A stretch of DNA of 60,164 bases, filler included, from Hausera hauseri (Eukaryota): the NCBI GenBank assembly GCA_046269625.1. It is 10 parts of 10 records of this genome, joined end to end, with 100 filler letters (N's around TTAATTAATTAA, not from the genome) between each part and the next. Parts side by side here need not be neighbours in the genome. Positions count along the whole stretch, not along the records: positions 48,020 to 53,674 come from JBJURY010212522.1; 9 more parts are not named here. One strand, given 5' to 3'. Each line of letters begins with the position of its first letter. The first letter of the stretch is position 1. A program made the translations under genes and the position numbers. Shown in pieces: positions 18,155-60,164 of this stretch. The notes under the pieces are model-generated. The model had not been told where the DNA came from, made no database searches, and saw only the letters and a program-made list of their open reading frames with translations.

Positions 18155-18156
18155 AA

Positions 18157-18174: not shown

Positions 18175-18424
18175 GCTGCTCTGCACCCTGATCTGCAAGC
18201 AGCGGCCACGGCTCCTTGTCTTGTTGAAGATTCCTTCTGACCTCCTCGTATTCGGATCTTCCTCCTTGAACTGTTTAAAGAGTTTTTATTCGCTTGCGGC
18301 AAAAAACCAATCCGTGAACCCGGCTAGTCAAATAAAGATAAACAGATTGGAAAATAGTTCGGGTTCTGGGTTGGTGATGCTGCCTAGGGAGCCTGAGGCA
18401 GAGTGCCTTTCGAATTCATACACA

Positions 18425-21400: not shown

Positions 21401-22233
21401 TGCGATATCACAGAGATGTTCCTACAAATTGGAGTAGCACCAGAGGATCGGAAATACTTAAGATTTCTCTGGAAAGAAGAAGAATGTGTGAAAGTTTATG
21501 AGTTTCAACGATTGGTGTTTGGGTTGAATGCAGCTCCATATTTAGCGCAATTAGTAAGCCGAGTAAACGCGGAGAAACACGTAAAAGATATACCCAAAGC
21601 AGCATGGGTGGCTACAAACGCCACTTATATGGATGATAGTTTGGTATCTGTTAGGACAGAAGAAAAAGCGGTAAAGATGTATCAAGACTTAAAGTGGTTA
21701 TGGAGTCAGGCTGGGATGAATGCAAGGAAATGGGTATCAAATTCTGAGAAGTTACGCGAAATCATACCGGAAGATGAAAAGTCGGCGTGCTATCAGATCG
21801 TAGAGGAGGAGACAAAGACCAAAACTCTAGGCATGAGGTGGAATGCCAACAGTGATGTGTTCTCATTCGATAGAAGGGTCCAGTCAGAAGAGATAACTAC
21901 AAAAAGGAAGTTTTTGAGCTCGGTAGCAAAAATATTTGACCCATTAGGATTCCTTAGCAGTTACCTAATGAAAGGAAAATTAATCATTCAAGAGATGTGG
22001 ATGCACGGTGCAGATTGGGATGAACAGCTTCCAGACTACTTAATCAAACGAGCGAAAGAATGGGTAGCAGAACAACAGGATTTGGATCAGATTCAAATAA
22101 AACGTGTATTAATATCAGACCAGTCCCAATATGAGGTACATATATTCTGCGATGCATCTAAAGATGCCTATGGAGCGGTCGCTTATTTGGTCACCACAGG
22201 AGACAAGAGAATTAGCAACATAATAGTGGCGAA
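18425..22233 (+). CDS. Intact BEL/Pao Gag-Pol polyprotein (3' cut by contig end): Ubl - DUF1759 capsid - 2x CCCH - protease - RT - RNase H
   Basis: Ubl 18638-18859 ending GLKGG; IELPKFSG..YEKWRQTF; CCCH fingers 19994-20146; LLDDASTDSYI; TPLGWT; LPHFPV..TTKIRIVFDAAS; YMDD 21626-21637; IFDPLG; HIFCDAS..AYGAVAY. Start is probably ATG 18377 or 18425. Confidence 0.93.
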
Positions 22234-22333: not shown

Positions 22334-25300
22334 CTGGAGATGGAAGCGAATTGTGCGATAAAGACGAAGTGAATAGTGGATTTGCAGGCGATGACGGTGA
22401 AGTAGTTGGTCAAAGATCAGTATATGATGACGCACATGAAGAGAACTGATTGTAAAGCTAGCGTGATTGCTGCGAAGGATTAAAATCATCAAGGAAATTA
22501 TATGATGGCTGGAGGGGAGAGAGGTTAGAGTTTGGATTCGAAACAGTGCCGTTATCCTGGTCATTGTCAACGAAAATGCTGCTTTAATATTAGAAATGTG
22601 TATATTTTGAGGTCTGTACTTAGGTAAAATAGTAGCGCTGTGCGAAGAAAGGTTGAGTAGTTTGTAAGGGCCAACGTATTGAGGCCGAAAACCAAAAGGT
22701 GATGGATCGTTCAGAAATACAAACTTGGCTGAGTATAAGTCCTCTGGAATATAAAGTTTGTCTTTATTTATAAGACGACAAAAGGCGTTTAAGTTTACAT
22801 TTACAAAATGGGACTCTGCCGCACGAATAACGTCATCTGATGAACTTTTATCAAAATTGGAGAGCTTAAATAGGGCACGAATTGGTGTCCCAAAGAGAGC
22901 CTCAGCTGGAGAACTGCAGGTGGGGGTGAATGACGTGTTGCGCCAACCGAGTAAAACAAGAGGAAGAGTTGAGGTTCAGTTATGATTGTTGTTTGCCAGG
23001 ATTTTTAAGGAAATCTTCGTGGTGAGGTGAAATCTCTCAAGAAGACAATTTGCTTGGAGATGGTACGGCGTCATATGAAAATGGGTCATCCCCAAGTACC
23101 TTACCAGAGATTTAAAAAAATCAGCGAGAAGCGCGATTCATCATCAATAAAATATATTGATAGCCGTTGTTGGTTGGTAAAGGACCCACAAAATCCAAAT
23201 GAACGGTGTCAAAGCGAGACGTGCAAGGGAAGTGGTTAAATGGTGGTTTGAGGTGTTTATGAACCTTATATTGTTGACATGCTACACATCCCTTAACCCA
23301 GACCTGTACATCTGTACGTATAATCGGCCATACAGCATGACGTTGCAGTAGACGGAATGTGGCTTTTGAACCCGGATGATGAAGAGAGTGAAAGTGAGTG
23401 AAAGCCGTTTTTTGTAGCGATGGAGCAAGGATGATTTTTTATTAGTCGAGTTGGATATGTCATAGGCGATTCCATCGATGATTTCAACCGATTTAAAAGC
23501 TTGAAAAATGTCAAATGATGACTGATTGCTTCTCAGAACTTCAGAGGAGAAAATTGGCTGAACTGTAATTGAGTTGACCGACCGCGACAAAAATATGTAA
23601 ACTAAATTTTCGGTGCATGAAATATATTTCATAAAAAAAGTAAATGTCGACGGGTATGACATCTGTCGTTCTTGACTGGGTGATGGTTGTTTCAACGTCA
23701 TGATATGAATTAGAGTCTTGTGGTCGGTTTAAATGATAAATTGACGTGATAGAAGCAAATGCTTTAAATGCTTTACCGCTAAAACTATGGCTAGGAGTTC
23801 ACGATCAAATGTTGAGTATCGGCTTTTTGGTTGCGTGAGCTTTCTGGAGTAGAATTCTAATGGCTCGTCAACACCATTGTATATTTAGTGTAATATCGCA
23901 CCAGTAGCTGTGGTTGAGACATCGGTTGTTAATATTAGTTCCGCGTTTGGTTTTGTAAAAGCCAGGATTTCAACGGTTTTCAGACCTTCACGAAGGCGAT
24001 CAAATTGATTTACTAGATTGGAAGTCCAGTGGATTAATTGCCTTTTCTTCCCAGATGAGAGATGTGCGAAAGGTGCCTTTAGTTCAGAGACGTGTGGCAC
24101 GTATTTGTGTACGAAATGCATTATCCCTAGAAAACTCCTCATATAGGTAGTAGTAGTTGGTAAGGTCACATTTTTTAATTGTTGTAAGCGATTAGGCTGG
24201 GGCGAATGACCTTGGGGAGTAATTATGTGACTTAAGAAGTTGACGCATTTCTGGAAGAAATTGCATTTGGCGAAATTGATTTGTAGGTTGCTTTGATACA
24301 ATATTTGAAAAATAATTCTAATGTGATCATGATGTTGTTTGATCGAGGTGGAAGTGACTAATATGTCATCTATGTATTGGTGAGCAAAGTCAAGACCTGA
24401 GAGAACGGTGTCAATGTGGCGTTGAAAAGTCTGCGATGCTCTACGTAGGCCGAAGTGCATGAAGATGTATTCATAAAGGCCAAATGGTGTGATTATAGCA
24501 GTCTTTGGAATATCATCAGGTGCAACAGGAATTTGATGGTAGGCCTTATGCAGATCAATGGTAGAGTAGGTATTGGTATTATTGAGGCTATGAAGAATAT
24601 CCTTAATGAGTTGTAGTGGATAGGCATGTGTAATAGTTAGGTTGTTTAATTTCAGATAGTCGCCACATGGCCTGTAAGTACCATCTTTTTTACTACTGCA
24701 TGAAGAGGACAGGCCCATGGAAAATTCGATGTCCGAACGATGCTAGACATTTCCAGTTCATTAAATTCCTGTTCCACAGCCTTACGTCTGCGTGGCGACA
24801 AGGGTCTGACCTTTTGTTTGATAGGCCTCTGATGCGCCATTATTATATGGTGATACGTTGTGGATGGAGGCTTGAAGTTGACGTCCCTTTTGACTATGCG
24901 AAAGCAAGACGTTGTGACGTATGATTTAAGATTGGAGTCTAGCAATAAGAATGATTGAGGCATATCATTAGAAAGAACAGCTGCGGTGATTGACGAAAAG
25001 CAAGTGGCATCGCTACTATCATCACCTAATTTGGATTTCTATCTTAGAATAGATTTATGATTGTTGTTCATAACTGAAGAAATACCGACTTTATCGGAAG
25101 CTTTTTTATAAATGATGAAGCGTTCAACATATTTACAAATGCGTACAATGAACTGCTCGCTAGATTGTCTGCGAGATGCATGTTTGGAATTGCGATCGAG
25201 TTCCTGCTTAGAAGACAACCGTATTTTCAATCGACCAATAGATCATGTGCGGCAAGAAAATCTGAGCCTATTATGGGAGGTTTAATATTGGCCACGTGAA

Positions 25301-27960
25301 ACTTCCAGACAAACGTATCTGGCAAGTTGGCGAAAGTAAAAGTCAGTTCCATGGTTCCTGCAACATGCAACGGTTGTCCACTGGCAGTGGAAAGCAGAGG
25401 ACAGGAAATTATAGTGGATGTAGGGGTGAAGGACAACGGACGGAGTAAGAAGGCAGCTCTTGTATCTATTAGGAATTCAATATGTGAGGTATCTCTGCAT
25501 AACAGTGTAGCTTTCAACAGAAAGATTGCAGAGGCGATGTTGAAACGTCTAGAAGATTGAGCGATATTGCCTGCGCCAGAATGTGCCGTAAAATCTGGAG
25601 CATTATTAGTTTTTTGAAAGGTTTGGAGACAAGGAAGAAGAGGAAGGAAAAGGAGAAAATTTATCTTCATAGTGTTTACAACCAGACACACATGAACTGG
25701 CCTGTGACTGATATTTGTTGTGGTATATGCAAATGAGGTTGCTTACAACGTATCGCATGCTATAGAATCGACAGCCTAAGAAGCATTTCCTTGCATCCTT
25801 TCAAAAATGCATGTGATGGAAGCAAGGTATACGTCCACCAGGTGACATAGATCGAGTTGAGTGTCTTGAAGTGCTTTGCTCCCTTGAAGTTCTGGTGTTA
25901 CTTCGTCGAGGCCCATTAATATTATTTAATTAAACGGTGATGACTGAAATTGACTGTTGTAACGTTTCAAATTGTTGTTGCATCAATTGCAGTTGTTGAG
26001 AGGAAGACCTAGTGTCTATATTTTAGGTATGTGCGGTTACAGCCACAATTGGGAGAGACTTTTTGGTGTGGAGAATCTCAAAGGACTTGTCGGCCACTAT
26101 GGCCAATCTTTCAATAGCAGTGGACTCGTCGACAACGGTGAGCAAAGCTCCGATTGAAGTAGGCAAATATCGTTTGAGCTACACACGAATCCACGTAAAC
26201 CGTATCGATCATCGTCCATTTTATTTGATTCATCCACCACAAGTTATCCACCAATGTCAGCAATTCGATTGTAAATGTTGCAGTACCGATTGTCCAGTTT
26301 TGTTAAGTAACCTGGTCGCAATTTTGGACCAAAATACAAAACATCCACATCACCGAAAAGGCCCATCCGTCCTTTGTGTTTCTTACTATTGTAACCAGCA
26401 ATAAAGATATTCAATGAAATTAGCGATATTAAGCAATATGCACAATATGACTGTCGAAGCAACTCTCGTAAATTTGATGGAAGTCGAACGTAATCATCTA
26501 ACTCTTCAATAATGCCATCAAAATCGGCTTTCGATTTACGACTAGAACTCATAATTGTTAAAGCTGAATCGTCGCCTGGACTAAAGTCCTCCGTAACTGG
26601 CAGTTGAAAAATATTGGATTCCAAATTTATTCAAATAAAATAGTAAAAAAATGGCGCAACAAATTCATTTGGTATTTTGGGCCGTTTGCAAGAAACATCA
26701 TTATTAGCCTCAAAAGATTCAACAGATAAAGATCTTTTACTTAATGATTTATCTAACGAATTGTTTCTATTAACGTCACCTGAGTTCACAGGAATAGGAC
26801 ATGAAGTCTTGGAAATTCATTGGACATCAACTTCGATAAATTACATCTAGCACTTGTTTTGAATTCCGCACTAATATTTAATGCACTGAAATCGCTTTCA
26901 TTGAAATTCTCGTTATCTTTGTCTATAATTCTGCATGTTGCATTTGGAGGTAGAGGAAACAATGACGAATGAGTGAAGAGAAACAGGCGGAAAATAGGGG
27001 CCCCACTATGGCCCCGACGCGACGGCAGCGGACGCCCGTCCGTGCCCAACCAAATGGGCCAAAATGTACCGGCCGCTGTAGACACCACAGCAAAGATGAC
27101 AAAAAATAACGGCGAATTAAATCTGCCTTATTGATAAGCGTTACTCCTAAAGCTCTAAGCTGCCGAATGGCCGTATGGAGAAAATCGGATGGTTTTTGGT
27201 TTCCTATCGCATGATCATTAAAGTATTTTCGTATAATGTGATCTATCGAAGGATCAGTGATATGGAGTACAGCCTCACAGAATATTTCATATAGTGTCGA
27301 TGATTGGAGCAGCTGGAAGATGTTACTGATCTGCTGCTTGATGATGGCAGGCAGAAGTATCAAAAGACTATTGGCTCGGACAAAGGAGTAGGTGATGTTG
27401 TTGGATTTTAGGTACTGTTGGTGGAATTGGAGCCATGGTTTCCTGGTGTTGTTTTTATCAAGAAAAAAATCCACACAAGGTTGATTTAGCGAGGCTCGTG
27501 TTTGTTGACAGTTTGGTACACAATAGACGTTGTGTGTATTTGTGGATTTATCATCTGAGAAAGGCTGATTTGAGTCCGATCCACCCCAAAGGCGAAAATT
27601 GAGCATGGGATTGATGACTGGACGTTCGTCGCATGCCAAAGACAGAAGGGAGCCGACAGGATGTACAGTGACACCTCGATGTGTGAAATAGAAGTTAGAA
27701 GTGTTGAGTGAGGAGGATAATGAGTTGTATAGGAGCTGCGCTGTGGCGTTGAGTGGAGCTCTAATGGTGTTAATGTGTTAATTATTGCTAAAGACCAGGA
27801 AGGCGAGTTGCTGCGACGTAATCCCAGGAGAATGTTGAAATATGGGGGGGGGCTTGGGCGGTTTCCTTCTGGGTTAAAGAGAGGTTCGAGCGTACAGCCG
27901 GGGAAGCAGTGGCAAATGATGGTTGAGATAAAGGAATATCCAAAGTTATTGAGCTTAAAA
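22334..27960 (-). mobile_element. Degraded near-complete CsRn1-like Ty3/Gypsy element (gag-PR-RT-RNase H-IN); gag split by a 922-bp insertion
   Basis: Gag IGNQKPSDFL (ORF 26923-27639) resumes at LPTSIGALL at about 26165. CHCC fingers about 25680-25825; FLIDTRAAF; RT KTAIITPFGLYEY..FGLRRASQTFQR..YIDD; RNase H LTTDVSTTATGA; integrase GPY at about 22670. Confidence 0.92.
26168..27089 (-). mobile_element. 922-bp insertion in gag: GC-rich LTR-like start + unidentified coding-like cargo, 5-bp TSD
   Basis: Flanked by GCAAA (26163-26167 and 27090-27094). Minus strand runs TGTGGT...ACGATA. Removing it and one TSD restores gag RRYFLSSLPTSIGALL. Confidence 0.7.
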
Positions 27961-28319
27961 AGTTTTCAAAATTAAAATTGGTGTTGGTCATTAAAATTTG
28001 TGAGCGCAGAAAATGGCCGCACTGGTGTGCGCAAACCAGTAAAAGGAACTTCGCCAACCTGTGCTTGAATGTCTGAATCCCGGATGTCGAATTCTGCCAC
28101 ATCTGAACTGTTCTACCCACTGGGTTATTCTTACTAATCAAATCGACGCCGGTCTCATCGACACCTCTCGAATGTTTGTTCTTTCTTTTGTCAAATACAT
28201 TGTTACCAAGTGACTTTGAGAGGATATTGTGAAGAATAGTAAGGAATTTTGAGCCTTTTAACTGATTCCTACTGCTCCAGAAATGGAGAATGCTGACAGT
28301 GAAGTAGCCACCTTTCTCC

Positions 28320-30640
<2,321 letters not shown>

Positions 30641-38929: not shown

Positions 38930-41900
38930 CAACATATCCCGAACTGTTCGGATGACCCTTTCTGCCAACCCGTTAGATTGATGTTGAAACGGACTGCTGA
39001 ATATTTATTTAATTCCGTATTCCTCGAAAAACTCCAAATTTGCTTCCCGAAAAACACTTTCCGTTGTCGGTCAAAATTGACTTCGGTTTTCCAAATCTGT
39101 AAATCCATTTCACCAACATGCACTCGATAATTGTTTCTTCCATCTGCTTCCGTATTTCTGTTAAACTCACCAGCTTTCAAAACTGATAAATAATAACCAA
39201 CACATACGGATACATGCTATCTTTGTCTCCGACATACGCACTATCCATTACCAATTGGTCCAGAAAAGTATCACTCTTAACAGGAACGTACTTCTCTTTG
39301 TCTTTTTAGTTGGAATTTCCCGACGTAAGCATCCTTTCACTTTTTTCAATGACAGTAGATAGATGTGAGCACACCAATCCAACCCCCCTCCCCAGGGAAG
39401 GAGAAAAAAAGTGGTTCGTAATGAGTCATGGTGTAGAAAAAAGCGATACACGCACACACGGTAAAAAGGGCGGAGATGGGCGACACGGTCATGAGAGTGA
39501 TACACACAAGCACGCGTACTGTATGGATTTAAGTCGGGTTTAAAATTTTGAATTTCGCGCCAAAAATTTTTTTGTTTAAATTTTGGCTGTGAACAAGGGG
39601 ATTTCTGGCTCGGATTGGGTTTCACTATTCCTACCTCATTTTTGTTTAAATTTTGCAAAGCTGCTATAAATACCCATGTGAAAGTGTCACTTGTGAAAAA
39701 TGTCTCAACCACATATCTTGGCCAGAAATACCTTTCTTCACAACCAAAATTTAAACAAAAAAATTTTTGGCGGGAATTTCAAATTTTTAAACCCGACTTA
39801 AATCCACACAGTAAGCGTTCTTGTGTATCACTCTCATGACCGTGTGCCGCCCATCTGCGCCCTTTTTACCGTGTGTGCGTGTACCGCTCTTTTCTACCTC
39901 ATAACTCATCACGAACCACTTCTCTTTTCCTTCCCTGAGAGGGGCGGTTGGCTTGGTGTGCTCACATCTAACTATTAATGACATCTACTTTTGATAAACC
40001 CAGAACTGCGAAGTGATGTTGACTATATCGTTTTGTCTTCTTCATACCCAGATGGCATAGATCCACATGTATCTTCTGGATGAAATATTTCCGCATATTG
40101 TTGGAACAACTGGTACTCTGTGGTTCAGATCTTTATATACCTTGAAACTGTCTGTCATTTCCAATTTATTGATCATATTGAGAATCGCTTTCGAGAGTTG
40201 AACGTTTTCCGCCGTTCAGCTGTCTAATCGACATTTTACTTGTTGTATTTCTGTACATTTTTCTTGTTCATTTTTCATCCTTTGCAAGGTTGACCTGACC
40301 AATAATGAATTAATGTGCCTTTTTATGTTTCGGATCAGCATGTCTTGTTTGGCACTGAGCACACATCCTCATACAACCGCGACAGTCTATCTGCATTTCC
40401 ATGTTGTTCGCTTTTCCTATATTCTAGTGTGAAATTAAAATCTGTCATGTTTTCAGCCACGTTTGGAATTGCGGTTTTATTGGTTTGGTTGCTGTTTTCA
40501 TACATACCAGTGATTTATGACAGGTTCTAACCGTGAAGTGCTTACCATACAGATACTGTTTAAAATACTGCATAAACTATTTTAAAGCCAACAGTTATTT
40601 TCTTCTGAAGCAGTAGCCTTTCTCAAAAGATGAATGTTATCGACGCATACGCTACTACCTTTTCTTCATTTCCTATTTGCTGGCTAAGTACAGCTCCGAT
40701 TGCACCAAGCGATGCGTCTGTATCTAAAATAAAGTCCTTCGTTGGATCCATGAAGGTTAATATTGGCGATTCATATAGCTTCAATATCAATGGCTTGAAA
40801 CTTTCCTCACACTTCTTTGACCAAAAAATTTTTTTACAAGTACTCTTTCAAGCCGGATGCAATGGCACCTCAATGAGCGCGTAATTTTTGGTAAACCTTC
40901 TTTACTAGTTGGCCAGACCTAAAAGCGCTCTCAACGACCGCGTACACTTTGGGACTGGATAATTCTGGATTTCTATTACTTTTAGTCGATTTGTTGACAC
41001 TGCATGATTACTAATGGTATGTCCGAGAAAAATCAACTCCGAAACACTAAATCTATATTTTTGGGCATTTACTTTCAGATTTGCATTTTTTAATCTTTTG
41101 ATCACCAAGTAGTTTGCAATGTTCCGAAATCATCTTTGAGTAAATCAGCACGTCATCCAAGTATATGACAACACCCGCAAACAGTAAGTATTTGAACAGT
41201 GTATTCACTAGTCGCTGAACTGTTTTCGGGTCAGTTGAGAAGCCAAATGTTACTCGGTTAAAGCAATTTTGTTGCCACTTCATGAAAAAGGCTCTTTTCT
41301 CTTGAAAGTCGTCGTCCAACTCGACTTGATGATATGCTTTACAGAGGTCTATACTTGAGAAAATTCTAGACCCACCTAACGCATCAGATAAGGTCTGACT
41401 TTCGGAAATTGGAAATAAAATTTTCTTTGCTATTTCATTTAACTTCCTAAAATCTAAACAAATTCGGATTCCCCAAATTTCTGTTGAGTAACCATTAAAT
41501 GGGAATTCCCTTCACTTTTGCTTTACGAATAATATCAGCTTTCACCAAGTTTTTGAAAGATTCTTCAATTGTACCTTTCAGATATGCTGATTGGCTTCTA
41601 GGATTCAGAAAAATTAGTTTACCCTCAGTTTCGATTCTAGGTTTTACCAGATCCGTAAACCCTAAGTCGTAATCATATTTCATAAACACATCATAGCGTT
41701 TTATAACTTCCACTAATTGGCTCTCCGCGATTTCCATTTTTCCCTTTTGTCACAGCTTTCATCTTCTTCGATCGAGATCCAATAATGCCGGTTTTAATCA
41801 ATTTTACATCATATGCCGTTAAAATATCCATACACCAATAACTTTCGACCTGATTGTTTTACTACTATCAATTCAGTCTTATGTAGATCAGAATCCGACT

Positions 41901-44563: not shown

Positions 44564-44650
44564 ATTTCCCATATAAAGTATTGATTATCGATCCTGGGGG
44601 CCTCAAGATAGAAAATTTATATTGGCCCAGTGTCCTCCGTTCCCCCTACT

Positions 44651-47371
44651 AAATGCTGCTGCGTCAAAATCAAAAGCTTTCATACATCGGCCTGGCCTAC
44701 CAACAACCGGTTTTAAGTTTTTAATTATTTTCGATCGAAGAGGCCCTGGAAATCCGCCATAAGGCTCGCCAACAAGACCTTGAAAAGTCTCAACCATTGA
44801 CTTTGGAAGAGATAAATCTTCAGCTTTGTCAACCAATTCTTTCGCGCCTAATTTATTTTGCACCATAAATTGGACAAGATCACCGACGACTTTCGAAGAT
44901 GGCGTAACCTTAAAAGTATCTTTAAGCAATTCATGTGCAATGGCATATTTAGCTTTAACTTCTTCAAATTGATCGGCTAGACCAAGTGAAAACGATTGGA
45001 ATTGTAAATTTGTGTATTGACCACCAGGAATTTGATTGTGGTACACATTAGCATTTCCACTTCGCATTGTTGTAGTACATTCAAAAGGACAATAGAGTCT
45101 TCTTGCTTGGGCCCGGTAGGATGAGTAAATGTACAACTTTTCGATACACAATCCAGTATCTAAAGCGGTGTTCTTGAGACAAGATACGACAGCTCCCAAA
45201 GATGGCTGACTGGTCATTCCAGACATCGAATCAATTGTACAGTCAACTATACCAGCTTCAGCTTTTCCTGCAGCTTCCATTCCACCAATCAAATTTGGCA
45301 AATAGTTAAGACAGTCGAAAACACGGAAAACATCCATGCCTGTTTGAACTGCTAGTTCACAAAATTTGAAGACTACATTATATGGATAATTGGTATAACC
45401 GACTGCATTGTCATCCCTAAGAAGCATCTGAAAAGGAATATTAGGAATCAGATTTCGTCGAGTTTCCAGTTTTTCCCAAAGACATTCTCGCAAAAATCTT
45501 ATGGAAACATCAAATGTGGCTCCTCCCCAATTTTCTAAACTAAAAAATTTGATAAATTATGTGCAACGAATGGGCTAATAGCAGCTAAATCGTATGTTCT
45601 AATTCTAGTTGCCAACAAAGACTGATGTGCATCACGAAATGTTGTATCCGTAATTAAACAAGCTGGATGTTTCCAAACGGCCTTAGCAAATTCTGCTGGA
45701 CCTAATTCTAATAACTTGTCACGCCAACCTTTGGGCTATTCTGCGTCTGTGTCAATATGTGGTATCTTAGGACTCTGATCTGATGGACGTAATGAGATTG
45801 CTAACATGGTAACATGACCGTTGACCGTAACATTACCTAAGAATTTTAATAACTTTTGAGCACGGTTTAGTGATGGTTTGAACTGAGAGTTCTGGATGTT
45901 CATCAATGAAACATGTATCCACGCTTCCGTTAGGGAATCTTTCGTTTCAAGAACATTGAACAAAAACGGAGTATTTGTTTTAACTCCTCGAATTCTGAAT
46001 TCCATGAGTGATCGATGCATTTTTGCACATGCAAGACGAAAATTTAATGCATGTGCAATAACTTTACTAACAAATAATCGTAATATGGAGAAATTATGGC
46101 CCCAGCAAAGGTACTGGAAGAGTTCAACCGTATACCCATTTCTTCACAACTTCGGAAAACCTCTAAACGCCCAGAATGTGGTTGGAAATCTTTGGCTGGA
46201 TCTTCAGATGTAATCCGTTATTGAATTGAATAACCAAAGGGCTTAATGCGATCTTGATCAAGACCAAGGTCCTTCAGTGACTTACCTTCAGTAATCAAAA
46301 TCTGAGATCGTACCAAATCAACACGTGTATCATTTTCAGTTACCGTGTGTTCAACTTGAAACCTGGCGTTAACTTCAGTGAAATAGTGTTTATTCTGCAG
46401 TTCATTATAGAGAAGCTCAACTGTTCTTGCGTTTTTGTAACCAACAAATTTGGCTAAATTAACCGCGTCCGTCAACATATTGTGTCTAACATTTTCATTA
46501 AGATTTGGTGCTGGAGCTATTTCAACAATTTTCTGATGTCGTCTTTCAACACTACAATCTCGCTCATAGAGATGAACAACATTTCCAAATTTGTATCCTA
46601 ATATCTGAACTTCAATGTGTCTTGGCCTTTCAATAAACTTTTCTATGAACATATTACCATTTCCGAGAGCAGCCATAGCCTCTGATTGGACACGTTTAAA
46701 ATTTTTGGGCAACGCATTTAATTCACGATTAACACGCATTCCACGTCCACCGCCACCAAACGCTGCTTTGAGCATAATCGGTAAACTGTATTGTTCGGCA
46801 AATACCATTGCTTCGTCAACATTGTCAACTGGTTTATTCGTACCAGGCACTACGGTAACATTGGCATCGATTGCCGCTTTACGGGCCTCGACTTTATCGC
46901 CCATTTTCTGAACGACTTCGGCAGTTGGTCCTATAATTTTGATACCGACTTGAGTACAAGCCAGTGCGAATTCCGATCGTTCGCTGAGAAATCCATGGCC
47001 GGGATGAATAGCATCGACACCGACCTTCTTAGCAATTTCAATAAGTTCTGGAATGTTTAAGTAAGTTGCAACCGGTGCTAAACCGACTTCAATAAAATAC
47101 GATTCGTCGGCTTTCTGTCGATGCATTTGCATTTTGTCTTGTTCACTGTAAATGGCAACCGTTTTAATTCCCATTTCCGTACATGCACGAAAAACTCGAA
47201 TAGCAATTTCACCTCGATTTGCAACTAAAACTTTCTTGATTTTTTATGCGTAAAAACATGACTTTCTTTACTGTTAATATGCGATTGGTGAACTTTTCAA
47301 CAATTACAAGTTAATTTGGAGCAATTTCGAAATTTCGATTGTAGATTGGAAATCCGTAGAACGGACAACAT
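44651..47371 (-). pseudogene. PC: Mitochondrial pyruvate carboxylase pseudogene; intronless, internally deleted, 3'-truncated
   Basis: Presequence-like [107 protein letters not shown]; multiple stops and frameshifts. Confidence 0.95.
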
Positions 47372-48019
47372 GGTACTGATGTAATTTTGTGTCTAAGTAA
47401 AATTTGGACTAATGAACATATACTGTGTGTCGATAATATTTTTACTTTTTAAAACTATATGAATAAAGTCTTCAACACTTAAACAGTATATCAATAAATA
47501 AATGCAATTATATGACCTAACGTAACTCACTCAGGGTCATGTTAATTTAAATAAACAATCATTTAAATATTGGTAGATGCTAAATCGGCATAATCTTTCT
47601 TGGGTATAACATTTTGTATCATGTGCAATATTTATCATCAAAAATAGAGTAGAGTGTTGCCCCGTTTAAATTCCATGCCCCGGACGGTTTTTAAAATATA
47701 ACCGGGGTTTTTCAATTTTTTATGGTCAATTCAATTTAATCGTCCATTTAATTAAAGGTATGTGCATATTTAGGATTTATTAACAAATATGTTTTCCATA
47801 TTGGTGAATATCATTCTTTACATTAGCCCAATTATTAATCATCAAAACCTTGAATTACAGTATGATTGACAGTATAAAATAGTAAACAAATTTTGTTCTG
47901 TATGTAGGAATATTGGAATNNNNNNNNNNNNNNNNNNNNNNNNNNNNNNNNNNNNNNNNNNNNTTAATTAATTAANNNNNNNNNNNNNNNNNNNNNNNNN
48001 NNNNNNNNNNNNNNNNNNN

Positions 48020-48079
48020 TGGCGATATGATAAATAGCGATACAATAAATGGAGATGCGATAAATGTCGATATAATAAA
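48020..48079 (+). repeat. 15-bp minisatellite, 4 copies
   Basis: tggcgatatgataaa tagcgatacaataaa tggagatgcgataaa tgtcgatataataaa. Confidence 0.75.
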
Positions 48080-48099: not shown

Positions 48100-49790
48100 T
48101 TACGATAGTGGTGAAGTTAGGACTTGCTTTAGAACTTCAAATGCTCGTTGTTGTGATTCCTCCGAACTCCAAGCTGTTCCTTTCTTGGTTAATGCTACTA
48201 ATGGTTTAACTATTATTCAAAAAAATTATATACAAATTTCCTGTAGTAGTTGGCCATTCCTAATAGTCTTTGTAGCTCCTTAAGATATTTTGATGGTTCT
48301 AATTTTTTAAGTTTCTCCACATTTCTAGGGTTAGGTTGAATTCCTTTACTCGACAGTGTGTCCAAGAAAAGTGACGGTACTTTTAGCAAATTCGCATTTT
48401 CTCAACTTGATTTTTAAATGAGCTTGTTTCAGTCTGTCAAATACTTGTGAAATACCTTTTAAGTGTTGTTCGACGTTTTCAGAAAATATTATTACATCAT
48501 GTATGTACACTATACAACAGGTTACTCCTCGCAATACAAAATTCATACATCTTTGAAATGTGGCAGGTCATCCTGTCAAACCGAAGGGCATAACATTAAA
48601 TTCCCATTATCCGGTTCCGATAGAAAAGGCTGTTTTTTGTTTATCTTCTTCGGCAACTTCGAGTTGCCAAAATCCACATTGTAAGTCCAAAGTGGTGAAT
48701 ATTGCGGCATTTGTCAAGGCTGCAAGCATCTCATCTATCTTTGGTAATGGGTAATTATCCTTCTTTGTAACATTATTTACTTCTCTAAAATCGACACTAA
48801 ATCGTTGTACTGCGTCTTTCTTCTGCACTAATACTACTGGGGACGTCCATGGCGAGAAACTCGGTCTGATAATACCGTGTTCCACCATTTGTGCTATTTG
48901 TCTATCACATTCTTCTTTCTTAACTTCAGCCATTCTATACGGATTTTGTTTAATAGGATAGGTGTTCTCTGTAATTATATGATGTTGAATAACGTTAGTT
49001 CTGCCAATGTCATTATCATTCATAGCTATAATATCTCGATATTTATGAAATAATTGCAGTAATTTTTTCAATTTATATGGGGTTAAATCGCCGTCTTTAA
49101 ATTTGATATTTTCATCTTCTACTAAGAATGTTGCTGCGCATACCTTAACTGGTTGTAATTGTTCTAAATTGAGATTTTGCCGTAATCTGATGGCCTTTTT
49201 ATTGATGCTTTCTATTGGCAATTCTAAACATTGTACGCCTTTTGGTACAAATAAGGGATATTGTAAAATCTTATATTTTTGTTATTATATAAATTTTATT
49301 CAAACATCAAAGCTGTTTGTGGTATTGCGGTGGTATTGTTAACATTACTACTACTTGCTGTTGTGGTCCAATAATAACTTCATGAGTTAAAGCCACACTA
49401 ATATCCTCAAATGGCAAGTTAGTCAGCGTATATTTAAGGGTCTTAGATGATAAGTCCATCGAGATTCCTGAAATTTGAGACAATGCATTCATTTCTATTA
49501 CTAAGGGCACTGGAAAATTTTATCGTCCACCACAAACAGGGTGATGGTGTGTAGATTACCATCAATTCTTATTTTCATGTTCATTTTTCTTAGAAATTGT
49601 ACTTGAGTAAAGTTTGCTGCTGCTATTATCACATCACTTGGCATGATTGTTCCTTTTTGATCGTCGGGTAAATATTAATGGCGAATCCTTGACATTGATG
49701 CACCGGTATCTAGTAGTGCCATAATATTTAATCTGTTAAATTGTACACGGACATAGGGGTTATTTCCTGTTGTTATTGTTGTTTGGGTCA
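48100..49790 (-). mobile_element. Ty3/Gypsy protease + reverse transcriptase, degraded
   Basis: ALLDTGASMS; PIKQNPYR; IIRPSFSPWTSPVVLVQKKD..RFSVDFREVN..DNYPLP; KTAF; YIHDVIIFS (degraded YxDD); KCEFAKSTVTFLGH. Confidence 0.9.
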
Positions 49791-49931
49791 TAAAAATGAA
49801 TTTTGTATTATTTAGTAGAATATTCGTGGTATTATATTGTCGAAGTACGTTTGGTGGGCATGCAGTGCTGGGTAAGCAGGTGCATTCATCCAAATCTCTT
49901 GCCATAGGAAGATAATGCATGGATGTGACCT

Positions 49932-51950
49932 TTATTTCTTTATAATCAGGGTATTCTGGGAGGGTTTATAGTATGTTCGTGCTTCCGGTTCGAAGTGTTG
50001 TCGAGCTTTCTTCCTTAATAGCATATATCTGACCAGGTATTCGTCCACTGTTAACTTGATAAAGGCTTGTAACTGTTGCTCTAATTCTGGGACTAGACGA
50101 AGTTCTTTTCTTAATTTTTCAAGTTCTTTTGTATGCCCATACATCAATACTGATTGAGCCATTGAAGGAAAACATCCCAGCATAATTTGCCATGCACAAC
50201 CACGTACTTTCTTTATATTTCTTGTAGCTCCTATTTGTCTTAATATGACCATTATGGTAGTAATTATGACATATACCGAAAACTCCAGATATAACGTGAT
50301 CAAAAGTAAGGAATTTATTCCAGTAGTCGTAAGGGACCTTTTTATCTATTCTATCTAAATGGTCAATTAGCAATAACATTCCATAATTAGGTACACAATC
50401 TGATCCTTTTGTAACAGTATATGTGAATTCTGTGATGACATTTTCTCGGATATTCGGAAATAGTACTTGTTTTCTTACTGCTTCCAGGTCTGTTAAAGAA
50501 TATAATTCAGTGGAAGGATGTTCTCTATTTACTATAAAATTCATACCTTTATCTAATGGTAATAATCCAATCCTCTGTGGTATGTTCATCATAGTTGGTT
50601 GGCGTGTTTTAGTCCATATTCCGTCATTAGGTTTAAAAGCTGGATAGAAGTCTTTGTAACATGGTGCAAAGCTAATTTCGGTAGGTAATAACAATTTTCG
50701 GCTAATAGAATCTACGTATCTGATTTTAGTTATGTTTTTATCATTGTATTGGACCATTAATTCGTTCGTGCAATTTTCTTTTCGAGATGTTACCAGCGTT
50801 ACCTCTATCGGTAGGCATTGGTACACATGGAGTATTTCACCTTGTACTCTACCAAATGTTCCAGGGCCATTTCCCATAATTATGGCAATATGTTCTGGGA
50901 ATTCTCTGGCTAATATAAAGTCATGCTGGTATAATTTTTGAGTGATTTTACAATCTGTCAATACCACCATGTTATACAACTCAACTAAATCTATTTTTGC
51001 GGTGTGATAAATATAATCTATCTTGTTATTCGTGTATAGATACCACTTTATATCTTCAGTTGGTAACTTTCCTGTATTTGCAAGAGTTACGTTTATTACG
51101 AATATATCATCATAGGATGTAGAGTAAACTGTGTTCGAACCACAAGTAGATACTGCTCTTTTACGTGCCAGTACGATTTTATCTTTGTCACTGGATGACA
51201 TTAAAAATTTTAGGGAAATGGTCTGTTTCAAGGTTCGAGGGGTAGGTAAACTTATATTATGTTTATGTAGAGGTTCTTGGTATTCGTCATCGTAATATAA
51301 ATCACCTTGTATTTCATACATAGATACTTGTTTAAAGAAAGCTAGTGGACTTATTACAACCGTTTTTCCCAAAGTAGGGTGGATGCTCCTAGGGTACGTA
51401 CTCCATCGGAATATGTATAGGATAATGCGGTTAATATTTTTCCTGTGATTGCATCGAAATTCACTTTGTATTTTTTATAGTGACAGTATAATCTTCTATT
51501 TTTACTACGACAGATTCCTTTTGTCCATTTGTCATCATACTTTCTCCTTTACAAGTTTCACCGTATCCGGACCATATTTTTCCGCCTGTAACTATGCGTA
51601 ATTAGACTCGTTTTCCTATGCCTGCTTGTACTGGCTGTTGAAGGCCTACATGAATTGAATCAGTGGCTCTTCTACAATTTGCGGCTGCTAATGTCATGGG
51701 TTTGTGTAGTCCTGCTGGAATAATTACTGGATTCCACGAATTATGATCGCAGTTATAATCGAATACTACTTTATTAATTTGGCATTCCTTTACTTGCACT
51801 TGTTGATAACTGATCTTGATACAGTTTATAGTTGTAAGGACTTTTTTTCTTTACTGATATTGGATTTGCATTTTGACTTTTGCCTATATCCACCAGTGAA
51901 AGTCTGACTGTTATTTCGGGTTTGGAACTTCTAACGCTTTCGTGCTTTTT
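49932..51950 (-). pseudogene. Envelope-like glycoprotein resembling chuvirus-type G proteins; frameshifted; located upstream of pol
   Basis: VQVKECQINKVVFDYNCDHNS, LAREFPEHIAIIMGNGPGTFGRVQGEILHVYQCLPIEV..NCTNELMVQYN..YVDSISRKLL..APC..GIW; C-terminal hydrophobic segments (VYVIITTIMVIL; GCAWQIMLGCFPSMAQSVL). Confidence 0.75.
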
Positions 51951-52339
51951 AAGCTGCTAACGACTATCAGATATAGTAATAGGTGAATAATTTGTACTAT
52001 CCAATCTAAGACATTGGTATCTCTGGGGTACATTAGAGTTGTAGGGTTAAATCGTTCGAGGATTTCATCCCAACCTCCTTGTTTGGTTACCAAATCTTTT
52101 GTTAGTTTATCCATGTAATGGAATAAGCCCCTTACTACATGATGCAATTTTGCGTCAACCTCTGTTTGATTTTTAAAGCTGACCACTATACATCCTAATG
52201 CCATCAGTAGTCGATTTTGATCACATTCCTTTAGTAATCGTGTCAATGCTTTATTTAAGCCTCCTTTCATTTTATATTTCTGTAGCAATATTGTAATTTG
52301 CGATGAAAGGTTTCTAGCGGTTTCTATTATGGACTTCAA
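51950..52339 (-). CDS. Bcl-2-like domain + transmembrane segment within ORF 51911-52597
   Basis: BH2-like YMDKLTKDLVTKQGGWDEILERF, weak BH1-like DQNRLLMALGCIVVSF, then hydrophobic VLDWIVQIIHLLLYLIVVSSL. Confidence 0.5.
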
Positions 52340-52599
52340 TGGAATCGTTGTAATTGTTGGTATTTTCTTGACTTGATTTGGCTTAACTTTCTTGATTAAT
52401 TGTTCTAGAGGTTCATGAGTTGTTAATGTTACTTTTGGTATGTCTGTTTCGTTTTCATTCGATGTTCCCGTAGTAGGAATTTTTGTTTGTTCACTTTCAT
52501 CATCACTAATAGTAAATCGTTGGAAGTTATTGTATAATATATTTTCTAACATTTCTCGTTGTTCCTTACGCGTTTTCGACAAGGGTCTTTTCTTCACTT

Positions 52600-53674
52600 A
52601 TCTTTCTGGTCTTTCTTCTTCAGGATTTTTTTCATCATCACTTATTGGATTAATGTTGCATTTGCGTGGTCATCTTCTTTTTTTCTTTGTACCAAATTCC
52701 ATGGTAATCTGATGAATCTTTCCGGTAAGGAGTCCATAATCCACAATGTAATCATTGTCAGCGGCTGGTCTACCGTAAACATCTGTTTTCGCTATTATAT
52801 TAGTTTCTAGATCTAATTCTTCTAATACTTTCCTTCGGAGGTCTGTAAATTTAGTGAACATTCCTGCTGTTACTTCGATTGCTTGTTCCCGCTTATTGGT
52901 TTTAATTTCTATACTTATAGTTATTTTCTTCTATGTTTTTGTCTTAAGTCCCTACCAAGAGCTTTAAGTAGCTTTCTTGCTGCTGAAAAGCAAAATACAT
53001 CGTCCTTCGTTAGAGACAAAAGCCATGGTGCGCATTCCATTCAATTAGCCAGTGGTAGTAAATCACATTGGCATAAGGCATTCCATACCTGGTTAGGTGC
53101 TGTATTGGCTATTTGTAGTTTAGCTTTAATTATTTTTGTAATTAATTCTGGGAGTTTATCTTACAATATGGAACCGGAGGGAATATTCATTTCTGGTTCT
53201 TTTTCAGATATGCATGTTTGTATTGAATAACAAATGGTTTCAAGTAATGTCAATCGCTGGGGTGGAACCTTAGATTTGGGTAGCGGTGCGATTAATCTGT
53301 CGTTATGATGTTCTATCCATTCTCCAATTGTTCTTTTTCTGACGAGCGCATGCGAATATTCGTCTGAATCCATGTCCAGGTGTCTTTGAGTAATTTGTTC
53401 GATTACTGGGATTTCTCTTGCTTCAGTAGATTTTTCGAGTTTCCGCATTGCTGAAAAGCCTATTCGTAGTGTCTTCTGACTTTCTATTATCCATGGTATA
53501 TTGTTTTCCGCTCGCTCAGTTTTTAAGTATTCGTCTAGATATCTTTGTGCTATAATTTCTGAGTTATGATCATTATATAGGTCCAAACATCTGTAAGTTT
53601 TGTTGGTTTGTTCCATTTCGTAAATTGCGGTTAGATTTATTGTACTTATTTTCAATGTATTCACCAGTTCTGGC
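52600..53674 (-). pseudogene. Degraded upstream part of the same polyprotein, unidentified
   Basis: ORF pieces 53161-53664 and 52670-52861 are on the same strand and separated only by single stops or frameshifts. Confidence 0.4.
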
Positions 53675-53779
53675 NNNNNNNNNNNNNNNNNNNNNNNNNN
53701 NNNNNNNNNNNNNNNNNNTTAATTAATTAANNNNNNNNNNNNNNNNNNNNNNNNNNNNNNNNNNNNNNNNNNNNATTAA

Positions 53780-55706: not shown

Positions 55707-56711
55707 ATGTTACATATCGTTGTCTGTAAAACCAGTTATATGATCACGACCAATGGGTGGATAGTGACTTGTACCGCTACTCTCCTTAGTCTCCCCACCG
55801 GACAGCAAAAGCGTAAACTAAATCTGAACAAACCATCATCAGTTCGGGCTCCTTTACGCCGTTGTTTAGAGATTGACCAGATCATTCAATTAAACCTTCA
55901 ACCAGAATTTAATATGCAGATTAACAATTACATCTGGTTAAAGGATTGTCCGAATGATTCGAATTGTGATAAAAGGGACGAAAGGACACTCAAAGATTTT
56001 AATTGCAAAGAATTCATTACAGAATTCAGTTGTACTAAGCGAGAGTCTGAGAATGCCGATTCTTCGAAAATGACAAACCTTGGTTTAAAGAGCTATACGA
56101 CTTGGGGTGAGGATCTTATTCGCAATCAAAATCCTAAAAGCGCTATTGGAGTATTCGATTCGAGACACAATAGAATAAACAAACCGCACGCAATCGATTT
56201 CCAACAAAAGGTATTGAAAAGGTCAATGATTCTCTTTAGAACCGTATCCGAATTGAGGGAAAATTTGAGAATGTTAACGGCTCTCCTCAGAGCCACAGTT
56301 ATTGATTTTGATGGGGTTTCGAATCCCCTTAAAAGATTCGCGAGAGTTGCCATTTTACTAGATGCGGGTAACACTTCAATGTCGGTTCCTTATTCGCCCC
56401 TACGACGTTTGAGCTGGAGCCACAAGGTCACAATTAATGCCCACCTTGCAGGTTACGTAGAAGCCCCAGCTCATGGTAAGGAGATCACTGGACTCATGAA
56501 GTATGAGATTAAAAGGAAAGTCGGATTAGTAAAAAATAAGGTCAGTTTTCATGCATTGTCATATACATTGTTGTCGGTCGTCTTCACATTCCGCCCTGAG
56601 CTTCCCCCTAACGAACGTTGCGCTAATACCCATAGGAGAATATTACCAAATTGTTCTATTAATAATTTTTTATTTCAGATATTAAGAACCTTGATAGAGT
56701 ATGAAAAATAA
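55707..56711 (+). CDS. 334-aa ORF of unknown function
   Basis: Long stop-free ATG-initiated frame in otherwise degraded AT-rich DNA; no motif recognised. Confidence 0.3.
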   Translation: MLHIVVCKTSYMITTNGWIVTCTATLLSLPTGQQKRKLNLNKPSSVRAPLRRCLEIDQIIQLNLQPEFNMQINNYIWLKDCPNDSNCDKRDERTLKDFNCKEFITEFSCTKRESENADSSKMTNLGLKSYTTWGEDLIRNQNPKSAIGVFDSRHNRINKPHAIDFQQKVLKRSMILFRTVSELRENLRMLTALLRATVIDFDGVSNPLKRFARVAILLDAGNTSMSVPYSPLRRLSWSHKVTINAHLAGYVEAPAHGKEITGLMKYEIKRKVGLVKNKVSFHALSYTLLSVVFTFRPELPPNERCANTHRRILPNCSINNFLFQILRTLIEYEK

Positions 56712-56782
56712 ACGTTATACTAAATGAAATAGGAATAAATCCTGTTATCTCTGAAACCTTTATAAACATCCTCATAAACTTC

Positions 56783-59700
56783 TTGTTATTTGTATATCGC
56801 GTCAGACCTGTAGAAATATTGCAACAGATATTAGAAGAAATCATAAACAAAAAAAGTAACAAGTTATCTGTTAAGGGGTATTACCTATTTAATAAATGTT
56901 ATATAAATAAAAGATTTAGATTTAGATATACTTTACTGAACAAGAACATACCAATCCTCAAAAGGAAATTAAAACAGTTAAGGGTATTACCAAAAGGGAT
57001 GGAAATGGAGAAACCGTCAAAGGAAATAGAAAATAAGAAAACAAAAAAACTTAAAAAAATAAAATTAGAGAAGAAAAGGAAAGAGTTCGAAGAACACAAA
57101 CCGGGACAGATTATCGTAAAAATAAACCAAAACCCCCCAGTCGTTTTTGATGTTAACGAAATGGAAACCATTAATACGTTGAAAAGAAAAATACCTGAAA
57201 AATGTTGTATGAGAACGGAAAAAACTATAATCATATATAAGAGTGAAAGACGGAACAATGACGAAATGATACAGAAGATCCCACATGGGACGATTATAAG
57301 CATCAATAGTGGATTACGAGGAGGGAGTGTTAGTGAAAGTGAAGTCGACGAATCAAAAAACATCGAGGTACAAAACGAAGATAGTAAAAATGATCCAAAC
57401 AAGAAGTCATGACATTAGATGACAAATCAGATATAAAATCACGGAATGAATATCTAGCACCAAAGTTAAAGCGTATCGAGCTTCCGAAATTCGGCAGAAA
57501 CGTTGCGGAATTCAAGAAATGGCGACAGATTTTCAAAAATTGTGTAGAAAAAACTTCGCTTTCGGATATAGACAAACAGATGCAACTAGAAAATTGTATG
57601 GAGAAGCAAAACGCTTAGTTCAAAACTATCTCTCAGAAGATTCCTACAAAGCAGCTGTCGGAAAATTGGAACGATATTATGGAGAAAACCAGAGAAATTA
57701 TGCCTCTCTTATGTCGGAAATTATAGAATTTCAAAAGATAAGTGTACATAATATCAAAGGATTATATTCCTTTGCCACGTTATTGGACTCCGTCATTATA
57801 AGATTAAAATATTTAGACCGTGAAACGGAGCTAGAAGGTGGTCTACTATACCAAAATCTAATCCAAAAATTACCCGAGGTTATGGTGTTAACATGGTAGC
57901 GTTATCGCAAAGACAAAGACAAAAAACGGAACGTGCAGAATTTGAAGGCGTGATTAGAAAAAGAAACAGAGTTAAAACATATTGCTGCAGAAGGAGTTTA
58001 TGGAATAAATGTCTTGATACCAACCAAAAATAGACATTCTTAAAGATTAGTGAAAAATTCCTTTTTTACCGATAAAATGGAGGAAAGGTATAAGTCCACA
58101 AACAAAATTGATTTCGGCACTAATGAAAAAGAAAATTAAAAAATAACAATTGTTGGAAAGAAAAGGAGGTCCAACGGAGACCCTGTAAATATTTCCTAGC
58201 TGGAAAATGCCAATTCGATAAATCATGCATATTTCGACATGAAAAGAGAAATCAGAGTGGTTATAAGAATACAAATCAAAAGCCTTGTTCATATTTTCAA
58301 AGTGGAAACTGGAGGTAAGGTGAAAATTGTTGGTTTAAACATGAGAAATTTCCATACGTTTCAAGGCGAGAAGCAAACTGCTTGAAAATCCTTGATGGAA
58401 AATTATACATAGAGAGAACTTTCAAAACCTCAATTGATGTTGACAGAACTATATCACAATCAAACGATAATTCTTGCCAAACGAATTAATGTGAATTCTC
58501 AGAGAGACGGACTTATGTGACGAAAATGGGAGATGAGAAATCTAAAGAACAAGACAAAATAGCCTTGAGGACGATATCAGCGTACTTGATCTACGGAACC
58601 AAGAAAGTTAAATGAATATGTTACTAGATGATACTGGCACAGACAGTTTCCTGGAAGAAGACATTGTACGGCAATTGGAACTCAGTGGAGAGGAGAATGT
58701 TACAGTGGCCGTAGACGGAGATACGCAACAGAAACACAAAATGACAAGAGTTCACATGATATTGCAAAGTTTGGACAATAGCATTTGTGAACGGTTCAAC
58801 GCACTATTCATGAAAAAGCCAACTGGAAACATTAATGCTGTAAACTGGGCGATTGAAAAAAGACGATGGCCCCACTTACGAGGTATTGCATTTGTAGAAG
58901 TGAGAAGAAATGAACACGTAGACAGAATCATAGGTGCAAATTACATACATCTTCACAAATCTATAAACGAAATTTCAGGCACACCGGAAGGACCAATAGC
59001 TAGACTGACTCCCGTTGGTTGGACATGTGTCGGAATTCTGAATGAACGGAAAGGCAATTTAGTAAGTAACAATTTAGTACGAACATACTGGACTAAGGTA
59101 GACGAAATGAACAAAAATATAAAAAGATTATGGGAAATTCTTCAGATTACAAAAGATAAAATGAAAAAGACTGAACATGGAAGGTATGAGGTTTCTCTGC
59201 CCTGGAAAGACAAAATTGAGATACCAAAATCCAGACATATGGCAGAAAAAAGACTCGAGTATCTGCAGAAGAAACTAAGCTCAGATAACTTGATGAATGT
59301 AGCTTATGAGCAAGTGATTAAAGATCATATTAAAAAAGAATATGTGGAGTTAGTAGAAAAGGCGGAAAATGAAACGAATTATTGGACGTTACCACATTTC
59401 CCCGTTCAGAAACCGGATAGGTCTACCACGAAAACCAGATTAGTATTCGACGCAGCTGCAAAGGTAAAAGGGAAAAGCTTAAATGACTTGTTACACTCAG
59501 GACCAAAGTTACAGCAAGATTTAGTAGAAATTCTAATCCGCATGAGAAAGAATGAAATCGTGTTAATTTGTGACATAGCTGAGATGTTCCTACAAATTAG
59601 TATTTCACCAGATGACAGAAAATTTGTACAATTCTTGTGGTGAAGGAATGGTAAGGTTGAAACGTATCAATTCACAAGACTAGTATTTGGATTGAATGCC

Positions 59701-60164
59701 TCACCATTCTTGGCAGATATGTTTGAGAACAAATATCCACGAGCAGTTGAAACAATTAGACAATCAACATACATGGATGACTGTATAGATTCCACTGAAA
59801 CAGAAAGTGAAGCTATTAAGTTATACTACCAGTTGAAAGAAATCTGGGAAGCAGCAAAAATGAATACCCATAAATGGTTATCGAATTTGGAACAATTATA
59901 TCGCGAGATACCGGAAAACGAAAAAGCAAAGGAATACGCCTTCAAAAGTGAGGTCAGTTGTACGTCGAAAACCTTAGGACTTAAGTGGAATGTAAAAGAA
60001 GACTGTTTAACTTTCGACGGCGGAGGGAATCGCGGAAGTGGATTGACCAAAAGAAATGTCCTAAATGCCTTAGCCAAAATATTTCACCCCTTGGGTCTAG
60101 TGAGCACTGTTACTATAGCAGGTAAATGTTTATTGCAGGAAATGTTGTTAAACGGGTTTGACTG
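56783..60164 (+). mobile_element. Degraded BEL/Pao gag-pol: Ubl - DUF1759 - 2x CCCH - PR - RT, running off-window
   Basis: Ubl 57107-57325 ending SGLRGG; KRIELPKFGR..FKKWRQIF; CKYFLAGKCQFDKSCIFRH at 58184-58240; LLDDTGTDSFL; LPHFPV..TTKTRLVFDAAA; YMDD 59770-59781; IFHPLG. Confidence 0.9.

Follow-up and report, generated by a model that had tools for sequence, protein, structure and literature searches.

Gene order on the element contig

The window analysed here is a 60-kb stretch of DNA from Hausera hauseri (GCA_046269625.1), made up of ten contigs of 4-9 kb each. These are joined by nine artificial N-TTAATTAATTAA-N spacers (for example at 47920-48019 and 53675-53774), so that adjacency across a spacer is meaningless. 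One of the contigs, JBJURY010212522.1 (48020-53674; 5,655 nt, 35% GC), is taken up nearly completely by a single minus-strand retroelement in which a chuvirus-type glycoprotein (G) precedes the protease and the reverse transcriptase (RT) of a Ty3/gypsy element. Read along the minus strand, on which all the features of this contig described below lie unless otherwise stated, the order is cargo domains, a membrane segment, G, a second membrane segment, a tail, the protease and the RT. The element runs 1.7 kb past the end assigned to it in an earlier note on this DNA (51950), up to the contig edge at 53674.

The ectodomain of G (50283-51934) is of the Monjiviricetes or chuvirus type (class III, gB-like), a class assignment made from sequence-profile evidence. 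A 450-aa frame (51471-50122) matches the family PF24664 (Monjiviricetes_fusion) with an E value of 8e-34, and the N-terminal piece of G (51910-51449, read with X at the stops) matches the N-terminal part of the same profile (E 0.0016); stops and frame changes break the 5' third of the ectodomain. The sole G match among 3,380 longer proteins (789-2250 aa) was a protein of 1963 aa from a contig of 7,573 nt, here called P0001 (E 4.7e-138, 61% identical; 56-61% across the ectodomain). A search of proteins nearer to G in length (247-788 aa, 2,840 candidates) gave no match, and no relatives of G were found in bacterial and archaeal genomes. P0001 is unbroken and its residues 734-1963 align with the window from the 5' edge of the element to the tail of G. 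In a single open reading frame (ORF) it covers the cargo, the ubiquitin-like domain, the helical domain, both membrane segments and G, at 49-81% identity to the corresponding window pieces. PF24664 was the only Pfam family matched in it (E 1.9e-63, profile positions 5-591 of 653). The fusion in frame of G to a long upstream cargo in P0001 speaks against G being the remains of a chuvirus that inserted here by accident.

Exactly two segments of P0001 exceed a hydropathy of 1.6, residues 1337-1357 and 1911-1929. They flank G, and both are also present in the window. The first (51935-52018, window motif at 52009-51950) corresponds to P0001 1337-1357, and the PF24664 match in P0001 begins inside it, at residue 1345; this segment would act both as the tail anchor of the cargo and as an internal signal sequence of G. 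The second, the anchor of G (50241-50297, with VIITTIMVIL at 50270-50241), corresponds to P0001 1911-1929 (hydropathy 2.54) and has a frame change inside it in the window copy. Two membrane segments at the two sides of G provide the topology needed for a cytosolic cargo together with a cytosolic pol. The anchor is followed by some 100 aa of cytoplasmic tail or spacer (49932-50240), an open frame whose first third is 69% identical to P0001 1916-1963 and which stops at 49934-49932. The furin site is not conserved, with RKR at 51165 in the window and no R-x-K/R-R in the G of P0001.

The cargo region lies between the contig edge and the first membrane segment. Nearest to the edge, and cut by it, is the C-terminal part of a putative DEDDh-exonuclease-like domain with a linker (53164-53673; 49% identical to P0001 734-892), followed by a helical stretch with an in-frame stop (52953-53160) that matches no Pfam family and falls inside the tblastn match to P0001 734-1041. 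Next comes a conserved domain of about 80 aa (52688-52927; 81% identical to P0001, 62/77), ubiquitin-like by eye and position. A charged low-complexity linker (52441-52672; stops at 52672 and 52600), 48% identical to P0001 over its open part (22/46), separates it from a helical domain (52019-52438; 72% identical to P0001, 79/109 over 52019-52345) that looks Bcl-2-like by motif and position. In both copies of this last domain the distance from QNRL to GGW is 47 residues and that from GGW to the first membrane segment 25-26, a layout that we take, in motifs and spacing, to recall the BH1-BH2-tail-anchor arrangement of Bcl-2 proteins. GGW was seen once in 138,231 residues of RT relatives.

The exonuclease-like domain is best treated as a lead. 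Residues 645-815 of P0001, the second half of which is present in the window, matched RNase_T/DEDDh clusters in the Atlas (18 of 30 matches, score 0.90) and arenavirus nucleoprotein exonuclease clusters (0.90). Shuffled proteins also score 0.9 in four to ten cases out of 100, and neither Pfam nor PDB sequence matches support the assignment, which therefore goes no further than a lead. By eye, the domain appears to have lost its first catalytic motif. Upstream in P0001, residues 371-640 contain by eye a first exonuclease-like stretch and a segment of AlkB-like appearance, neither of them backed by Pfam or PDB, and the AlkB-like candidate between the two exonuclease-like stretches was accordingly set aside. 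The two stretches are weakly alike, at a score reached by 21 of 2000 shuffles. Residues 1-310 form a long N-terminus of low complexity, rich in R, D, N and S, and P0001 may start downstream of a capsid.

Downstream of the tail is a retropepsin aspartic protease with one in-frame stop (49504-49965; LLDTGAS at 49716-49696). It matches PF00077 (E 0.011) and scores 26.9 bits against a profile of the region that precedes the RT in related elements, the best of 200 shuffles reaching 1.8. This profile was built from 31 of the 120 listed RT relatives, those with a protease motif among the 42 whose upstream sequence was long enough. The spacer between protease and RT (49051-49503; length about 220 aa, range in the relatives 156-301) appears dUTPase-like by eye. 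It is followed by a Ty3/gypsy RT with the start of the connection region (48107-49050), so that the order protease then RT is directly visible on the contig. Two RT pieces match PF00078 (E 2.9e-8 and 1.2e-18), and the region carries two in-frame stops, two frame changes and a degenerate catalytic motif at 48507-48496. The 120 listed relatives are gypsy-type pol proteins. The closest RT relative among the matches listed, P0009 (54% identity), is a protein of 412 aa on a contig of 8,375 nt. We built a FastTree phylogeny, rooted on a Pao RT, from 114 of the 120 relatives (the alignments of the other six were too short), two other RTs of the window and the RT of the element, read in one frame with X at its stops. 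Within the gypsy-type RTs the element pairs with P0009 as its sister (support 0.98) at a distance of 0.80; its distance was 7.6 to the Pao RT of the window versus 0.8-1.8 to the eight gypsy relatives measured. Since the tree contains no named reference clades, it decides between gypsy and BEL/Pao only. No Pao Pfam families were found in the pieces of the element.

The copy is decayed, with 11 in-frame stops across the six single-frame segments examined and about nine frame changes in a three-frame reading (four from the P0001 alignment, two from RT relatives and three inferred, including the one at the junction of tail and protease). The GC content at third codon positions is uniform over cargo, G and RT (0.27-0.31). 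No repeat the size of a long terminal repeat (LTR) was found in the contig, the longest direct repeat being 26 nt at 77% identity. This 5.6-kb contig lacks RNase H, integrase, gag capsid and LTRs, both ends of the element lying beyond it, and no Gag family of Pfam matched the window pieces or P0001. Shortly after the connection region starts, at the point expected for RNase H, the sequence changes to four copies of a 15-nt tandem repeat (48020-48079, no strand; Tandem Repeats Finder score 64) and the contig ends; the element is interrupted or finishes at this repeat, close to the contig edge. The other nine contigs have matches to the RT region only and no second copy of G, and the window holds no Rfam families or tRNAs.

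Taken together, these observations confirm the arrangement described in the earlier note, namely G ectodomain, membrane region, tail, the LLDTGAS frame and RT on one strand (PF24664, membrane motif, PF00077 and the profile, PF00078) with no LTR between G and pol. The chuvirus-type, class III nature of G and the Ty3/gypsy affiliation of the RT that it had proposed are supported by the PF24664 matches and by the RT phylogeny, respectively. Its suggestion of a single polyprotein appears likely, given the cargo and G in one ORF of P0001 and the exactly two membrane segments around G.

Likeness to Burro and competing readings

We consider it likely that this contig represents the central 5.6 kb of a decayed Burro-like Ty3/gypsy LTR retrotransposon, that is, an errantivirus of GAG-ENV-POL order with a class III envelope gene (env) of the gB/chuvirus type, and that it probably comes from a flatworm. 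Burro (GYPSM1/Burro1-4), described in 2019, are giant planarian gypsy elements of more than 30 kb in which env lies in frame between gag and pol, and one polyprotein includes Ubl-BCL2-env-PR-dUTPase-like-RT (PR being the protease; PMC6431247). Their env is related to mononegavirus fusion glycoproteins yet was also scored as 'gypsy Env', leaving the fusogen class ambiguous there, and for Dugesia japonica the paper reports copies that have decayed, with stops and frameshifts (PMC6431247). Our element is like Burro in having env between the gag-side cargo and pol, in a matching order of the cargo (the Ubl, Bcl-2 and dUTPase labels being given here by eye or position only) and in being a decayed copy with stops and frameshifts. 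It is unlike Burro in the DEDDh-exonuclease-like cargo (a lead) upstream of the ubiquitin-like domain, where Burro1 has MATH, and in that no BIR, ankyrin or RING is seen in the available part of the element. According to PMC13465017, the inhibitor of apoptosis (IAP) region of Burro1 protects planarian stem cells, as reported in a 2026 study that it cites, and the family has expanded in Geoplanidae and Dugesiidae. PMC8532177 and PMC11410931 mention Burro without extending its anatomy in their available text. We found no description of DEDDh-like cargo in a Burro-like polyprotein in the literature searched, the primary Burro papers lying outside that search.

A similar likeness holds for the gB-type GAG-ENV-POL errantiviruses of PMC13524379, with which our element shares the Ty3/gypsy pol, a class III env before pol with no LTR between them, an ectodomain between two membrane segments and an unconserved furin site. 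In that work Nematoda, Bryozoa and Platyhelminthes have only gB-type env, in GAG-ENV-POL order, and a chuvirus-like G stands beside gypsy pol in 114 arthropod elements. Its elements are intact and often multi-copy (45 and 215 copies for Schmidtea elements 1 and 2, the Schmidtea elements sharing 32-64% identity in the six pairs shown), unlike the one decayed fragment found here, and neither Bcl-2 nor ubiquitin cargo is named in its main text. Along a gap-free block of 53 residues in domain I of G, P0001 is identical to Smed_errantivirus_1 at 20/53 positions, to the mosquito BEL-51_AnFu at 13/53 and to one hymenopteran row at 11/53, by a hand count of these three rows of the PMC13524379 supplement only. 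In domain II an insertion, and after it an LMS-x4-DG motif (rows 1 and 2), is by eye common to the Schmidtea rows, P0001 and the window. The rows compared from nematodes, bryozoans, tunicates, branchiopods and tardigrades look more distant. Going by this count, our G appears to resemble most the Schmidtea rows of PMC13524379, in a comparison that was made without most cnidarian, ctenophore and insect rows, which may bear on the closest match. We infer that these Schmidtea elements are Burro.

The earlier note had given the capture of a chuvirus-like G as reported for BEL/Pao (Anakin) elements; in Anakin, G lies after the integrase. Cases beside gypsy pol are described in PMC13524379. With Anakin (a mosquito BEL/Pao element with a chuvirus-derived G; PMC7642597, PMC10084718) our element shares the glycoprotein family (PF24664-type, gB-like), whereas its RT is gypsy, not BEL/Pao, and its G block is more distant (the 13/53 of BEL-51_AnFu). 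The Juno/Vesta LTR elements of bdelloid rotifers, which captured a DEDDy exonuclease, are like ours in that they are gypsy elements with a DEDD-type exonuclease (in ours a lead), and have a dUTPase between protease and RT (PMC5408684), where ours is dUTPase-like by eye only. Their nuclease is a separate ORF3 with intact catalytic residues and their env is of the paramyxovirus F type (PMC5408684), unlike the DEDDh-like domain found here, which sits inside the polyprotein upstream of env and by eye is devoid of the first catalytic motif.

The novelty of the arrangement is not supported by this comparison. Placing env before pol is published both for Burro (PMC6431247) and for the gB-type GAG-ENV-POL elements (PMC13524379), and the independent origin that it put forward finds no support in a G that, by hand count, resembles the known Schmidtea group.

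A number of observations weigh against a Burro-like flatworm element. No search returned a named flatworm protein, and the name Burro does not occur in the available text of PMC13524379. P0001 ends just past the anchor of G, 68 codons short of the tail stop of the window copy; as it ends before pol, it gives no confirmation of the link between G and pol, which is seen in the window copy only. PF24664 is in none of the 120 listed RT relatives and none of them matches the G or cargo pieces. BIR, ankyrin and MATH, typical of Burro1, were seen neither in the window nor in P0001. The labels of the cargo are unconfirmed as well. The ubiquitin-like domain has no Pfam match, no PDB match and no significant score against the two Pao ubiquitin-like domains of the window; the scores of the dUTPase-like spacer against the profiles were reached by 9 and 19 of 200 shuffles and it has no Pfam match; for the Bcl-2-like helical domain the only Pfam hint is Death (E 0.042). 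A library-wide search with the Bcl-2-like ORF retrieved only P0001 and P0002, and the latter, a repeat protein matching the acidic linker only, was rejected as a relative of the helical domain. Sequence searches of the PDB with the helical, ubiquitin-like and cargo regions gave nothing significant, and in the Atlas the helical domain met only an unnamed cluster at 0.77. AlphaFold2 gave two models of it at low confidence (mean predicted local distance difference test scores, pLDDT, of 36.1 and 42.1), with no Foldseek match at E 0.001, no VIA-align match at Z 8 and no Bcl-2 chain listed, so that the fold is neither favoured nor disfavoured.

The junction of G and pol allows another reading of the same element family, which we regard as unlikely, namely that env and pol are separate. 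The ORF of gag, cargo and G would end after the tail and pol would be expressed through reinitiation at an ATG 11 nt further on, a non-canonical frameshift or splicing of the RNA. The first ATG of the protease frame is located 11 nt after the tail stop and 68 codons before LLDTGAS, and the end of P0001 just after the anchor of G could be a real stop. However, the protease frame is open from 49965, 45 nt before its first ATG, and so overlaps the tail frame by 34 nt and leaves no true intergenic gap. The 11 nt given in the earlier note are exact as the distance from the tail stop to this ATG. A programmed -1 frameshift was rejected, no canonical X-XXY-YYZ heptamer being present in 50010-49900. 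About eight other frame changes affect this copy, six of them shown by homologs, and the env of Burro is in frame with pol (PMC6431247). Moreover, the window tail continues 68 codons past the end of P0001, which may simply be cut short. The apparent 11-nt gap is probably one more break of a decayed copy.

A further reading is a GAG-ENV-POL gypsy lineage apart from Burro, in another animal group, which would have reached the same order independently and whose likeness to Bcl-2 and ubiquitin would be due to chance or convergence; this too seems improbable. GAG-ENV-POL elements are not monophyletic (PMC13524379), the cargo differs from that of Burro1 (the DEDDh-like lead, no BIR or MATH seen) and the protein searches retrieved no planarian protein. 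On the other hand, Burro polyproteins of about 4,900-5,100 aa fall outside the length windows of those searches, the two cargo domains have the right size and are ordered as the Ubl and BCL2 of Burro, and domains I-II of G are by eye nearer to the Schmidtea rows than to the nematode, bryozoan, tunicate, branchiopod, tardigrade or BEL rows (PMC13524379).

A one-off nesting, in which an endogenous viral element of chuvirus origin, or else a piece of pol, was inserted by chance beside unrelated sequence, is very improbable: fragments of chuvirus-like G are often flanked by fragmentary gypsy sequences without clear capture (PMC10084718) and here G stands next to pol in one copy only, but in P0001 G is fused in frame to a long non-chuviral cargo, the junction has no non-coding gap, LTR or compositional step, strand and membrane topology are correct and intact elements present in multiple copies have this order too (PMC13524379).

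The remaining contigs of the window

The contigs placed beside the element in the window provide no genomic context for it. Two of the parts carry BEL/Pao elements. The first (17993-22232, plus strand) has an open polyprotein of 1,413 aa with CCCH zinc fingers after gag and, upstream of gag, at residues 219-284, a ubiquitin-like domain (PF00240, E 8.6e-4) with LKGG at its end. The second (56708-60162, plus strand) is broken and has a similar ubiquitin-like stretch ending in LRGG, the two Pao stretches aligning with a score of 88. Decayed gypsy-type elements without G were found at 22334-28000 (minus strand), 3856-5499 (plus), 15796-17388 (plus) and 41053-41511 (minus), and the gypsy stretches 4512-5495 and 16324-17306 are 70-79% alike.

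The window also contains decayed intronless copies of host genes at 3-1946 (minus strand), 2399-2716 (plus), 11110-13464 (plus), 28685-29217 (minus) and 44603-47243 (minus), namely a chaperonin TCP-1, a helicase C-terminal domain, a family B DNA polymerase, a BEACH protein and a pyruvate carboxylase. Several share contigs with retroelements, and they look like processed pseudogenes or captured cargo. The best PDB match of the pyruvate carboxylase pseudogene is of the mitochondrial type, and the start of its contig (43808-44567) has a 185-nt repeat in two copies and a 43-nt tandem repeat in three copies. Three consecutive open frames of 208-344 aa (7169-9808, minus strand) match no Pfam family. 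Finally, two pairs of inverted repeats, 35447-35631/37692-37876 (185 nt, 86%) and 39356-39486/39844-39974 (131 nt, 87%), may be the ends of non-autonomous DNA transposons.

A possible cycle and what the fragment adds

For active members of a Burro-like family we can propose a cycle, of which the window copy itself is incapable. One long polyprotein would be made, and its first membrane segment would be the internal signal that sends G into the lumen of the endoplasmic reticulum and would then be cut by signal peptidase, freeing the N-terminus of G. The upstream cargo (ubiquitin-like and Bcl-2-like) would stay on the cytosolic face of the membrane, held by its tail anchor, and there it may curb apoptosis and limit host cell death or RNA defence. 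The second membrane segment would return the chain to the cytosol, so that protease, RT and the integrase located off the contig would be tethered under the G trimer until self-processing by the protease frees the pol proteins. Budding particles could then carry G and, by class III membrane fusion, gain entry to neighbouring cells or to the germline.

More speculatively, and at odds that we would put low, this could be a Burro-like lineage outside the triclad planarians in which the place of the MATH/BIR cargo was taken by one or two DEDDh exonuclease-like domains, catalytically inactive and similar to the exonuclease of the arenavirus nucleoprotein. These would be used together with a membrane-anchored Bcl-2-like leader of env against RNA silencing and apoptosis in infected cells.

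Since the env-before-pol arrangement is already published, the fragment is not to be read as a sign that an infectious retroelement arose anew. What it adds is modest: another family with the layout of Burro and a different cargo set, including the exonuclease-like lead. It also links two papers on what seem to be the same flatworm elements, one describing the cargo of Burro (PMC6431247) and the other the gB-type env (PMC13524379). The way in which the gB-type env of errantiviruses enters cells is still an open question (PMC13524379), for which P0001, being unbroken, is better material than the window copy. If the host is not a planarian, the range of Burro-like elements would widen, and the polyprotein of cargo, env and pol would either move between hosts or predate the triclads.

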